Source of the DNA: Schmidtea polychroa | Lineage: Eukaryota | Assembly: GCA_044892525.1 (NCBI GenBank) | Contig: CM097885.1 | Span: forward strand, 14,944,001 to 15,008,000 | DNA: 64,000 nucleotides | Direction of reading: 5' to 3' | Part shown: one piece after another, positions 1 to 16,801 of the stretch | How the letters are laid out: the number at the start of each line of letters is the position of its first letter | Numbering within the stretch: the first letter of the stretch is position 1 | Position numbers and translations under genes: made by a program | The notes under the pieces: generated by a model | The model's input: the letters and a program-made list of their open reading frames with translations, nothing else | What the model was told of the DNA's origin: nothing | Database searches by the model: none

Positions 1-155
1 CTATCTACTCCTAGTGTATCCGACAAAATATTTTGTCCCCCTATGGGTAATGCTCACAAGGGTACTGGTCACGCTCAACAAATCAACAAATCAACAAAAC
101 ATACATTTATTTAAACAATAAAATAATGTAAAATTAACAAAGGTAAACTAAATAT
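1..155. repeat. Inner portion of left terminal inverted repeat
   Basis: Reverse complement of 17360-17514 with 2 mismatches seen; includes the 16-bp palindrome GACAAAATATTTTGTC. Confidence 0.95.
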
Positions 156-783
156 ATATAGTATGATATTCATTAATCAGTGTTGAACAGGCTTGACACT
201 TGCGAACATTCTTCTCATGACACTTAGAACAAACAATTACGTGACCACACGGTAAATACAAAACCGAAACTCGATTTTCTTTACAAATTGAACAAGTTAA
301 ATATCTTTTCTTAACATCTTTCAATTTTTTCGTTAGCTTATTTTCAATCAAATCGGCTTTCGCTATCCATTCATAAATCAATCTACTATATCCAGGTTTC
401 AACCTTAAAAACATACAACTCCAAAAGTATTCATTCAGTGAATCGTTGTTTACTGCTATTTTTTCTAAGTACATTAAATAACAAGATAACTTTAAAATGG
501 ATTTCTCATAATTAAATAAATCAAACAAATATTCAATAGAGGAATGTTTGAAAATTTTTAAAATATTTATGAGTTGCTTATCACTGTAAGTATCATGATT
601 ATTTATAAAATCTTCAAGTGTATTGTTAAAAAATGTCAATGAAATTTCAGAATAGGCTGGACTTAATTTTTCCTTATTTCTAGTAGGACTTCCTTGCTAT
701 AAATGACATATAAAAAAAAATTGCCAAAATAATAAAGTTACCAAATGTGTTACACATTCATCGGTTTTATTTGTATAAATCAT
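148..783 (-). CDS. C-terminal RING-HC (IAP/MDM2-type) E3 ligase-like protein, about 196 aa, 2 exons (742-783, 148-696)
   Basis: CSICKENRVSVLYLPCGHVIVCSKC...CQAC at the extreme C-terminus. A 45-bp GT-AG intron (697-741) joins ATG 783 in frame. No BIR domain recognisable. Confidence 0.8.
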
Positions 784-926
784 TATTAAAAACTAAATTA
801 CTTTTGTTTTTTTTTACATTTATAAAAATTGTGATAACCAATCAAAATAGAGCTTTCAAAATGTAACCATCAAATGTATAACAATAATAAGCATGACTAG
901 TACCCTTTGCAACCTGTTTTAAGTTT

Positions 927-1136
927 TATTATTATTATTATTATTATTATTATTATTATTATTATTATTATTATTATTATTATTATTAATATTATTAATA
1001 TTATTATTATTATTATTATTATTATTATTATTATTATTATTAATATTATTATTATTATTATTATTATTATTATTATTATTATTATTATTATTATTATTAA
1101 TATTATTATTATTATTATTATTATTAATATTATTAT
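927..1136. repeat. (ATT)n microsatellite
   Basis: Direct reading. Confidence 0.97.
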
Positions 1137-1141
1137 TTCAT

Positions 1142-1303
1142 TGATATAGCTGCATGCTCACTGCAGACTATATATAAAAATACTGATATAGCTGCATGCT
1201 CACTGCAGACTATATATAAAAATACTGATATAGCTGCATGCTCACTGCAGACTATATATAAAAAAACTGTTATAGCTGCATGCTCACTGCAGACTATATA
1301 AAA
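1142..1303. repeat. 4 x 42-bp tandem repeat with dyad core TAGCTGCATGCTCACTGCAGACTA
   Basis: Units start at 1142, 1184, 1226 and 1268. Confidence 0.95.
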
Positions 1304-1528
1304 ATCACCATTAAATATAAAAAATTATAATAAAACACCAAATACTTAAAAAATTAAAAAAAAATCTGATTAAAAATTTTATTGAATATGTATATATAAA
1401 TACAAGTTTTATACAATATACAGGTTTTTGTACAAGTTTTTAAATAAAAGTTTCTATACAATTTTTTTTATAAATCATGAAATCACTATACAAGTTTTTA
1501 TAAATCAAAAATATAAAGTTTTTTCTAT

Positions 1529-14473: not shown

Positions 14474-14891
14474 ATGTACAAAATACCAAGCTCTGCAACC
14501 CTCATGAAGGATATTGACGATTCCGGTAAATTTAAAATTTTTATTTTCACATTATTTACTATTTATTATTTTAGAAAAATATATCAAAGTTATGATCAAT
14601 AGAATAAAATATTATTATCCGCAAATCAATGAAATTATCAAGGATAGAGAAGCAGAAATAATTCCGGACCTCATTTTCTACAAAACACAAATTAGAATAA
14701 TGGAGGTATTTCACCAGTTTCTGTGGGATTTAAAGATAAACAGAAGCATCAAACAAATGGAGCCAGAGTACCAGTGCATCATCGGATGCTCATGCTGTGC
14801 CGATCGATATCGGCGATATGTCGAATGGGAGTTAGTGAAAACTCTGCGAAGGTTTCACTACTCCCGGATTGTAGATCTTGGATATGAATAA
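14474..14891 (+). CDS. Hypothetical protein, 2 exons (14474-14525, 14575-14891)
   Basis: A 49-bp GT-AG intron (14526-14574) joins MYKIPSSATLMKDIDDS to EKYIKV...; Cys cluster CIIGCSCC; AATAAA overlaps the stop. Confidence 0.65.
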
Positions 14892-15295
14892 ATGTATTTT
14901 TGTATCTGTTGTGTTTTTATATTTGAAATAGTAATAAATAATAGTAATAAATAATAATATTAATAATAATAGAAATAATAATAGTAATAATAGAAATATG
15001 AATAGTAATAATAATAGAAATAATAGTAAAAAAACATTAATAATAATAATGAAACACATTATTAATAAATCTGTAAATAGAACATATAACAAAACATGTA
15101 ATAATTAAAACATTAATAATAAAACACATAAATAATAAATCTGTAAATAGAACATATAACAAAACATGTGACAATGCAACATCAATGCATTTTGAATGCA
15201 ATTTTAAACAAAGACATGCTGTAATCTGATTGGTTGATAGACATGAGTCAAAGGTATAAAAACCCTGTAACATTTCAATTTATTCATTATTCACG

Positions 15296-15706
15296 ATGAC
15301 CAAGAAAATTTCAAGCACCGAAAAACCAAAAGAAATGGTACAACCAGTTCAAATGTTCCACAACTACAAAATGTATTTTTTGAAAGAAGAAATCAATATG
15401 AAATTGGTTGCACCAGTCAAGCTAATTCCAACTAAATTCGAATTCTTATCCGGCACGCTTTCAATGATTGATGTCAAAACTATTGATGATGTTTTTAAAC
15501 GGATAGATTCGAATCTATCGTGTAATCAACATGCATGGTTCAACAATAGATATGCAAGATTTTATGATGCTTTTGATGAAATCAGTTTCAAAGAAAATGA
15601 AAATTGGTATATAACAATAGCAATCCAGGGATATAAAGTTGATAATAATGATGTATATTCTCCTATTTGGAAAATTATGTCTGCTAGACTTTCACAAATA
15701 TTTTAA
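15296..15706 (+). CDS. Hypothetical protein, possibly an OB-fold ssDNA-binding protein
   Basis: Own CCAAT/TATA promoter and AATAAA. C-terminal ITIAIQGY..YSPIWKI..ARL resembles viral SSB strands (impression only). Confidence 0.55.
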   Translation: MTKKISSTEKPKEMVQPVQMFHNYKMYFLKEEINMKLVAPVKLIPTKFEFLSGTLSMIDVKTIDDVFKRIDSNLSCNQHAWFNNRYARFYDAFDEISFKENENWYITIAIQGYKVDNNDVYSPIWKIMSARLSQIF

Positions 15707-15832
15707 TGTTATATTTAATAAATGTATTAGTCAGATTTGTTTTTCTCTTTATTAATTGCAACATAAATGCAAATGACCTGCAAATTTAACAAAGAAAATC
15801 TATAAACAAAATTATAATATAGTTTTAAAGTG

Positions 15833-16218
15833 ATGAAAATGACTGCAGAAAAAGGTTAACATGATTAATTAATTACCGAATTATTTATTATTTAGAATTT
15901 TTAATCAACTTTTTGTTGGAAAAGTTAGCAGAAATATCTGGTGTGAAAATGGAGGATATATTATCTATTACAAATGCCTTAAATATCGGCTGGTTAGTTG
16001 AGAGTCAAGATACAGGATTTGATGATGAGGAAGAAACTCAAGAAATTGATGAGGAAGAAACACAAGAGGAAATGTATGAACCTATAGAGGAACCTATAGA
16101 GGAACCTATAGAGGAACCTAAAGATGAATCTAAAGATAATATTACGAATGATTGTATTGATCATGTCGTTGAAAATATAATGAAATGTGGAGATGACGAC
16201 TGCGAATGTGTTAATTAA
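15833..16218 (+). CDS. Small acidic protein with EEPI repeats, 2 exons (intron 15855-15895)
   Basis: A 41-bp intron joins MKMTAEK to EFLINFLLEKLAE in frame. Confidence 0.6.
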
Positions 16219-16286
16219 TAAATCTTAGTGTTTGTAAATTTATTTAAAATTTTATTTAAAAATCAAACAAAATAACTATATAAATT

Positions 16287-16801
16287 TTATTTAAAAAAAC
16301 GACATAAAACATATAAAATAGCAACACCTGTTGCAAGTTTTAAATAGTTTTTAAATTGGATTTTTTGCTGATCTAATTCTTTTGCATTTCTGGCGAGTCG
16401 ATTCAGCACGCCCCATCCGCCATTGGCTTCAATCCATGGCTGAAACTTTGACTTGATTATCTAGAAAATATATATTAATAAAATATAGATTATAAAAGTA
16501 TTACTTCTTGAGACCACTGATAATAGTGCTCGGAATCCAATAGGCTTTTTTCAATTATTATCTTCATATAAGCGAACCCTACTAATATTCGGGTCCACTT
16601 CATCTCCTCGTCGCATAAGCAATTAAATATTCTATTAAAATAGAATTTCTTTGTTTCGAGGGAATCGGAATTGAGGACGTCCTCATAATCAATGTGATTA
16701 CCTTCTATAATCTTTTCGGTCCGATCGACCAGGAAAATTAGGCTTTCCATAATATTCCTGTTGATGAGTTCTCTTAACATATTTTCCATTAAATTAGACA
16801 T
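16287..16801 (-). CDS. Bcl-2 family protein (156 aa), 2 exons (16505-16801, 16287-16460)
   Basis: BH1-like DEEMKWTRILVGFAY. After a 44-bp intron: BH2 PWIEANGGW and tail anchor YLKLATGVAILYVLCRFFK*. Confidence 0.87.

Follow-up and report, generated by a model that had tools for sequence, protein, structure and literature searches.

Host-type spliceosomal introns predicted in core and accessory genes of a Schmidtea polychroa Polinton

Can a Polinton, an element whose core genes are described as intronless, carry introns of the kind found in its host? We address this question for an element of Schmidtea polychroa located mostly within a stretch of 64,000 nucleotides (nt), here called the window (NCBI GenBank assembly GCA_044892525.1, contig CM097885.1, forward-strand positions 14,944,001 to 15,008,000). 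The window starts inside a full-length Polinton/Maverick of 19.8 kb overall. An initial annotation, made by a model from the letters alone, had predicted about 12 spliceosomal introns between 148 and 16801; this span lies within the Polinton, but the element itself reaches from 1,133 bases ahead of window base 1 to its right end at 18683. Comparison with other copies and relatives leads us to conclude that the twelve segments are very probably ordinary host-type spliceosomal introns, gained stepwise in the lineage and removed by the host spliceosome.

The element displays the Polinton hallmarks, namely a family B DNA polymerase, a retroviral-type (RVE) integrase, an A32 ATPase, an adenovirus-type protease and a double jelly-roll capsid. 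We counted 16 genes, eight of them interrupted and eight single open reading frames (ORFs). The descriptive trait of intronless core genes is absent here, as the polymerase, integrase and protease genes are all interrupted. The intronless genes are those for the capsid, a putative minor capsid protein, the ATPase and a TBP-fold protein, plus four others.

The twelve segments as a set

All twelve segments begin with GT and end with AG on the strand of their gene, exactly where the initial annotation had placed them. Ten are on the minus strand and two, 14526-14574 and 15855-15895, on the plus strand. They measure 39-58 nt, plus one of 96 nt, and contain 79-98% A+T. The 11 introns that are not microsatellites have 7-10 T in the 14 nt preceding their last three letters. 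Translated exon by exon, every exon is open and the phases are consistent within each gene: nine introns are in phase 1, two (RING and Bcl-2) in phase 0 and one (protease) in phase 2. The count of about 12 describes segments rather than independent sites, which number only about nine in eight genes, because the segments starting at 7550, 7674 and 7798 belong to one 124-nt repeat and that at 7389 appears similar by eye. Six of these roughly nine sites are no more than 52 nt from the ATG. The initially noted match in size to host introns was confirmed for two, of 43 nt (48758-48800) and 54 nt (36656-36709), both read by eye.

Distinct homologous copies were used to compare eight sites, namely all but those of the integrase and the tandem triplet. 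In 72 of 149 comparisons, the segment differed in length by a number that is not a multiple of three; the flanking exons had 6 frame-breaking length events in 13,996 aligned bases. The GT and AG letters were altered in 4 of 594 cases. The comparison of intron positions in sister copies, proposed initially as a check, was favorable: the splice-site ends are near-invariant and the lengths vary out of frame.

Intron sites in individual genes

The adenovirus-type cysteine protease gene (8518..8904, minus strand; PF00770, E 2.2e-6, over the cut-off) has a predicted exon 1 of only 5 nt (8900-8904) and an exon 2 at 8518-8860, separated by a 39-nt, phase 2 intron in codon 2 (8861..8899) that is common to the whole clade. 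The protease would need the host spliceosome, because the first Met of the unspliced frame in this copy falls after the conserved His and Asp. The site reads GT..AG in 38/38 distinct matches from the same genome (36-42 nt), including families at 61-75% amino acid identity. Eleven of 38 metagenomic loci have a GT..AG segment in this position, representing seven distinct lineages with unrelated sequences of 37-43 nt; 26 others begin the same frame directly with ATG, and one is cut off. In a 30-row capsid tree, from which loci with fewer than 240 aligned residues were left out, the 16 protease-intron rows make up one side of a 100/100 branch, and a quick protease tree gives support of 92 for the intron side. 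With midpoint rooting, this placement of the capsid-tree rows points to a single gain. A search of viral contigs returned one distant protease.

Some further features were seen in the metagenomic relatives. In two of them (L071:1586-1900 and L073:1481-1800), the gene beside the protease resembles the cysteine-rich N terminus of the polymerase, and two short, AT-rich GT..AG segments interrupt it as well. Another relative ends in an ORF that by eye resembles a ubiquitin-conjugating enzyme (L079:222-722, minus strand).

The integrase gene (11514..12626, minus strand) encodes an RVE integrase with a chromodomain (PF00665 and PF00385) in exons 12239-12626 and 11514-12142. The PF00665 match, with E 1.2e-5, is under the cut-off; 1,987 homologues were found, carrying PF00665. 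The predicted 96-nt, phase 1 intron (12143..12238) is almost pure (ATT)n and begins two codons past what we take to be the second aspartate of the DDE motif. In this copy it is an in-frame, stop-free run, and its removal restores motif spacing but not a frame, which narrows the initial claim that each segment restores a frame, a missing ATG or a motif. Homologous proteins that included the translated segment had been named as grounds for refutation; the insert is absent from 25/25 aligned homologues, and the spacing is short in 106/120 (6 were mis-anchored and 8 unmatched), in homologue sets that favor intronless genes. Nine sisters have inserts of 63-156 nt. Patterns with exact flanks yielded no zero-length inserts, 3 of up to 30 nt and 76 of 31-60 nt.

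Family F, another family of these elements, has at the same integrase site a 43-nt, nonrepetitive, stop-containing GT..AG segment in 78/84 matches, which in our reading settles the place as an intron site. Families A and B have no integrase intron. Rows with the intron sit among intronless rows in the integrase trees; the best trees need 2 changes, and one clade is not rejected (approximately unbiased test, p-AU 0.53 and 0.70). No viral contig held a relative matching the integrase alignment.

The polymerase gene (1529..5645, minus strand) comprises exon 1 at 5624-5645 and exon 2 at 1529-5565. It was assigned to family B from a PHROG DNA polymerase match (E 4.8e-21) and motifs, and we infer that the enzyme is of the protein-primed type; sequence searches gave no Pfam PolB match and no PDB match. 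Comparison of copies places a 58-nt, phase 1 intron near the start of the gene (5566..5623). It is 57-60 nt long in 4 distinct sisters, and its acceptor occupies the same position in every family examined. Family A has three phase 1 leader introns in this gene, the last at the same site with a similar split cysteine codon (by eye).

The Bcl-2 homologue (16287..16801, minus strand), which has a hydrophobic tail, consists of exon 1 (16505-16801) and exon 2 (16287-16460) around a 44-nt, phase 0 intron (16461-16504). The exons weakly match successive parts of PF00452, the domain with BH1 and BH2 (profile 10-67 and 86-100), and neither alone reaches the Pfam cut-off; sisters read through an intron with a length divisible by three pass it. 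The best PDB sequence matches of the exons are Bcl-2A1 and Bcl-xL (E 0.05-0.16). Exon 1 folded alone gave a predicted local distance difference test (pLDDT) score of 64 and no significant structural match. The intron has GT..AG in 22/22 copies, at 42-51 nt, and its site is kept at 67-72% identity. The family B homologue is intronless, and five host-type Bcl-2 exons run uninterrupted across the viral intron site, ending after the GGW motif; the intron was thus most likely acquired within the element.

A gene for an acidic protein (7123..8000, minus strand) has six exons, all open, and only phase 1 introns. The first intron (7907..7954, 48 nt) is mostly 45-52 nt long in 24 usable sisters and ends with AG in 24/24. 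Three introns of 46 nt (7550..7595, 7674..7719 and 7798..7843) are copies within the 124-nt exon-plus-intron repeat, and the last intron (7389..7435) is 47 nt, with GT..AG ends and copy comparison as its basis. A 78-nt exon is present zero, one or two times across copies. The last exon has no Pfam match. Near 7137 (minus strand), this exon contains a donor-like GTAAG ahead of an intron-like tail that differs in one sister; the tail is a possible 13th intron, for which a clear acceptor was sought and not found.

The RING-finger (C3HC4) gene (148..783, minus strand; PF13920, E 1.5e-9) is made up of exon 1 at 742-783 and exon 2 at 148-696. Its 45-nt, phase 0 intron (697..741), placed from the phases and sister loci, has a terminal in-frame stop. 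In 16/19 fetched close copies the intron is 44-49 nt and exon 1 a constant 42 nt; 3 are off this pattern. The RING gene, intron included, also forms a tandem array of over 40 units spaced at about 1 kb (G000 C1 at about 8.68-8.73 Mb and 9.01 Mb; L204).

Two further interrupted genes are on the plus strand. The gene at 14474..14891 has exons 14474-14525 and 14575-14891 and a 49-nt, phase 1 intron (14526-14574), with GT..AG in 13/13 sisters at 48-52 nt; family A has the same site at 31-32% amino acid identity. A second acidic-protein gene (15833..16218), with exons 15833-15854 and 15896-16218, has a 41-nt, phase 1 intron (15855-15895) with GT..AG in 25/25 copies at 33-45 nt.

Intron gain, alternatives and known systems

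Polintons are copied as DNA by their own polymerase. Nothing in this process would remove a gained intron, and introns would therefore persist once the splice sites are needed. Transcription would take place in the host nucleus, followed by host splicing; dependence of element genes on the host spliceosome would follow for the protease, Bcl-2 and six-exon acidic-protein genes. A single origin of the protease intron would lie at the root of an AT-rich clade to which unrelated metagenomic contigs also belong. The integrase intron would be later, its body having become an (ATT)n microsatellite in the family of the window. The Bcl-2 cargo would have been captured without the host's intron and gained its own afterwards, and in the acidic-protein gene introns would have multiplied through tandem duplication of a phase 1 exon together with its intron. 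The start-proximal position of six of nine sites may reflect selection for host-like transcripts. We tentatively extend this to a broader proposal, possible and still doubtful, that a clade of animal Polintons has gained host-type introns throughout its history and keeps them by selection just downstream of the start codons of early and accessory genes, with capsid and packaging genes spared, so that its transcripts pass as those of the host.

The alternative that survives best accepts the introns as real and regards them as selected host mimicry, in which a short start-proximal intron aids export or escape from silencing, either by small RNAs or directed at intronless transcripts. Most early and accessory genes would be marked as host-like and capsid and packaging genes left unspliced, which would add a function to the stepwise gain of introns without replacing it. 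The clustering of sites near the ATG fits this idea, as do the persistence of sites across families at 31-75% amino acid identity and the single-ORF state of the capsid, ATPase and TBP genes, here and in the other families examined. Planarian Polintons are also PIWI targets (PMC8532177). We nevertheless regard the mimicry explanation as unlikely: the integrase intron is missing from families A and B and the Bcl-2 intron from family B, yet these families are abundant, and a 5′ bias can arise neutrally too. The protease gene, moreover, carries an intron, and the protease is a virion-maturation gene.

Several results weigh against calling all twelve segments introns. The GT..AG, AT-rich pattern occurs at 21 sites in the element, compared with a mean of 13.6 in 30 shuffles (range 4-26), so such ends alone are not above chance; this plain filter misses the protease and integrase segments, and the 11 other matches (6 acceptors) are antisense to genes or between genes. 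Substitutions inside the segments (5.7%) are not above those in the flanks (8.0%). The copies compared are related and hence not independent, T-run length changes would arise in any noncoding DNA, sequencing errors can contribute, and sets of full-length protein homologues are biased to intronless genes. At single sites, an upstream ATG opens a frame that runs through unspliced in some protease copies with a 37-nt segment (P0121), and the acceptor of 7389-7435 is altered in 2 of 3 recovered sisters. In the family of the window, all integrase inserts but one (29 nt) are multiples of 3 with an open frame. The RING intron has the weakest reach, and a relative at 71% apparently starts without it.

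Seven runs that contain part of the stretch were guessed, not recorded, to be RNA. Reads of three of them and of one large run were mapped on a sister stretch with four introns (L121:1680-8960). None of 15 listed joints is at these introns (there were 357 further joints, and the large run was dominant), and contigs of two of the presumed RNA runs (X1 and X2) extend unspliced into the protease intron. Read cover on the sister stretch is flat and DNA-like, and the runs may be or contain DNA. The comparison of copies and relatives strongly supports the initial prediction of spliceosomal introns, and their removal from mature RNA is a prediction.

One could argue from these points that only some of the introns are real, the 5′ segments being leader or intergenic DNA with chance GT and AG and the integrase segment a poly-isoleucine expansion or decay after insertion. 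The pattern count, the open integrase frame, the unspliced contigs and the comparison of the RING intron among close sisters only all lean this way. We consider it improbable, given the stop-containing 43-nt segment of family F at the integrase site, the absence of zero-length integrase inserts (with only 3 of the 79 matches of up to 60 nt being 30 nt or shorter), the loss of the conserved His and Asp from an unspliced protease in this copy and the near-invariance of GT and AG. Very improbable is a third possibility, inheritance of the introns from captured host genes or their placement by introner transposons after integration, for which both routes are in print (10.1101/2022.07.12.499685; PMC12166617) and the Bcl-2, RING and similar accessory genes are of host type, but three of the interrupted genes belong to the viral core and have intronless outgroups, the five host Bcl-2 exons are unbroken where the viral intron lies, introns of different genes are unalike and lack terminal repeats (by eye), and introns common to all copies of a family predate the individual insertions. 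As for introner traits, similarity among the 12 sequences, compared by eye, is limited to the tandem copies of one gene (no genome-wide search was run).

Stepwise gain of host-type introns can be set beside several known systems. Animal Polintons/Mavericks (adintoviruses) have the same polymerase, integrase, ATPase, protease, capsid, terminal inverted repeats (TIRs) and 6-bp duplication as the element described here, and Bcl-2 and IAP-like cargo has been reported in adintoviruses (PMC8502044). Vertebrate Mavericks include intact elements with intronless ORFs, and introns are stated to have gone unobserved (PMC8097293); here, in contrast, interruptions affect three core and five accessory genes. 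Nematode Mavericks with wasp/krma cargo likewise carry intron-containing genes, but their core genes are called intronless and the introns are in host-derived cargo (10.1101/2022.07.12.499685), whereas here introns are in core genes and the Bcl-2 intron is off the position in the host gene. Dinoflagellate eupolintoviral elements also contain spliceosomal-type introns, which are introners mostly acquired after integration (PMC12166617); those described here are nonrepetitive, family-wide and conserved in position across diverged lineages. In the accessible portions of the literature, we found no description of spliceosomal introns as a family-wide trait of core genes in animal Polintons; Repbase entries and subscription papers were outside this scope and may already annotate exons in such elements.

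Adenoviruses are nuclear DNA viruses that use the host spliceosome and have a related polymerase and protease. Their splicing is mostly alternative and acts on long shared transcripts, unlike the single, host-sized introns of 36-60 nt in separate genes seen here.

These introns have consequences for annotation. One survey justifies searching for ORFs only by viral genes being intronless (PMC9356565). Where core genes have introns, ORF-based surveys can call intact elements broken, miss cargo such as Bcl-2 and give wrong N termini, as seen in the database proteins P0121, P0124, P0127 and P0136. The initial statement that ORF-based annotation hides much of the accessory proteome was overstated. 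It holds for the six-exon acidic-protein gene and Bcl-2, which are truly hidden; five genes lose just a first exon of 5-52 nt and are still found as ORFs, and 8 of 16 are intronless. It is rare for intron gain to be observed while sister lineages lacking the intron are still available. If the broader proposal above is correct, families in one genome would hold a record of successive, datable steps at which introns arose in viral core genes, and the body of the integrase intron would be a microsatellite of variable length whose lower limit lies close to the minimum intron size of the host. Since states with and without the integrase and Bcl-2 introns occur side by side in one genome, in many copies, how introns are gained, at what rate and within which size limits would be directly testable.

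Remaining genes and genomic setting

The major capsid protein gene (8932..10152, minus strand) is intronless and was identified as a double jelly-roll by structure prediction and Foldseek: the model of the frame 8935-10008 has a pLDDT of 87 and matches iridovirus, PBCV-1 and mavirus capsids with E 5e-13. An in-frame stop near 10010 interrupts it in this copy, and 28/29 sister loci are open. It had no match among GenBank phages or in the PDB sequence search. Also intronless on the minus strand are a small conserved gene (10149..10517), a conserved gene without a Pfam match (10510..11568), presumably a minor capsid protein by its position, a basic protein gene (12688..13221) and the A32-type packaging ATPase (13240..13866; PF04665, E 1.2e-6, over the cut-off). 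The first two were recognized from copies and relatives. On the plus strand are the compact TBP-fold gene (13966..14403; PF00352, E 1.3e-15), which is conserved in metagenomic relatives, a gene conserved in copies and relatives (15296..15706) and a gene with hydrophobic ends by eye (16907..17404), the product of which is probably secreted or membrane-bound; none has an intron. Protein atlas searches with 14577-14888 and 15296-15703 returned no matches. Of 13 genes checked, 8 have a TATAAA-type box no more than 70 nt upstream.

The TIRs are about 1.3 kb long and 93% alike over 1,351 aligned bases (left repeat versus 17360-18694). The inner end of the left TIR occupies 1..155; the right TIR (17360..18683) includes an (AAT)n array and a terminal CT. 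The element runs from AG to CT and is bordered by a 6-bp target-site duplication (18684..18689), whose partner copy borders the left end, beyond the window. The genome totals 781 Mb, with four large contigs, and 114/114 scored capsid matches in it are ≥99% identical (at least 114 genes), which suggests recent spread.

The families appear modular. Family B has the polymerase and TBP genes in the opposite arrangement, and family A has a gene of the 15296 type in both arms. Copies E and C1 gave no polymerase match, and in copies c7-c10 nearly identical capsids occur together with diverged polymerases and different TIRs. In the window, a motif of about 25 nt recurs within 42-nt and 151-nt tandem repeats (1142-1304 and 5777-6386) that flank the polymerase gene on both sides, alternating with (ATT)n runs; a similar motif precedes the polymerase gene in copies c8 and c9.

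The genes next to the element are of animal type. Downstream are further short polymerase-like fragments from other copies (20950-21312, 30542-30982 and 42375-42836, by eye) and broken ORFs that we take from their resemblance to be transposase-like, of hAT type at 22723-24621 and 56740-58322 and of piggyBac type at 40370-41135. A host diacylglycerol/monoacylglycerol acyltransferase gene (33641-34708, plus strand; PF03982, E 3.5e-121) forms one long open frame.

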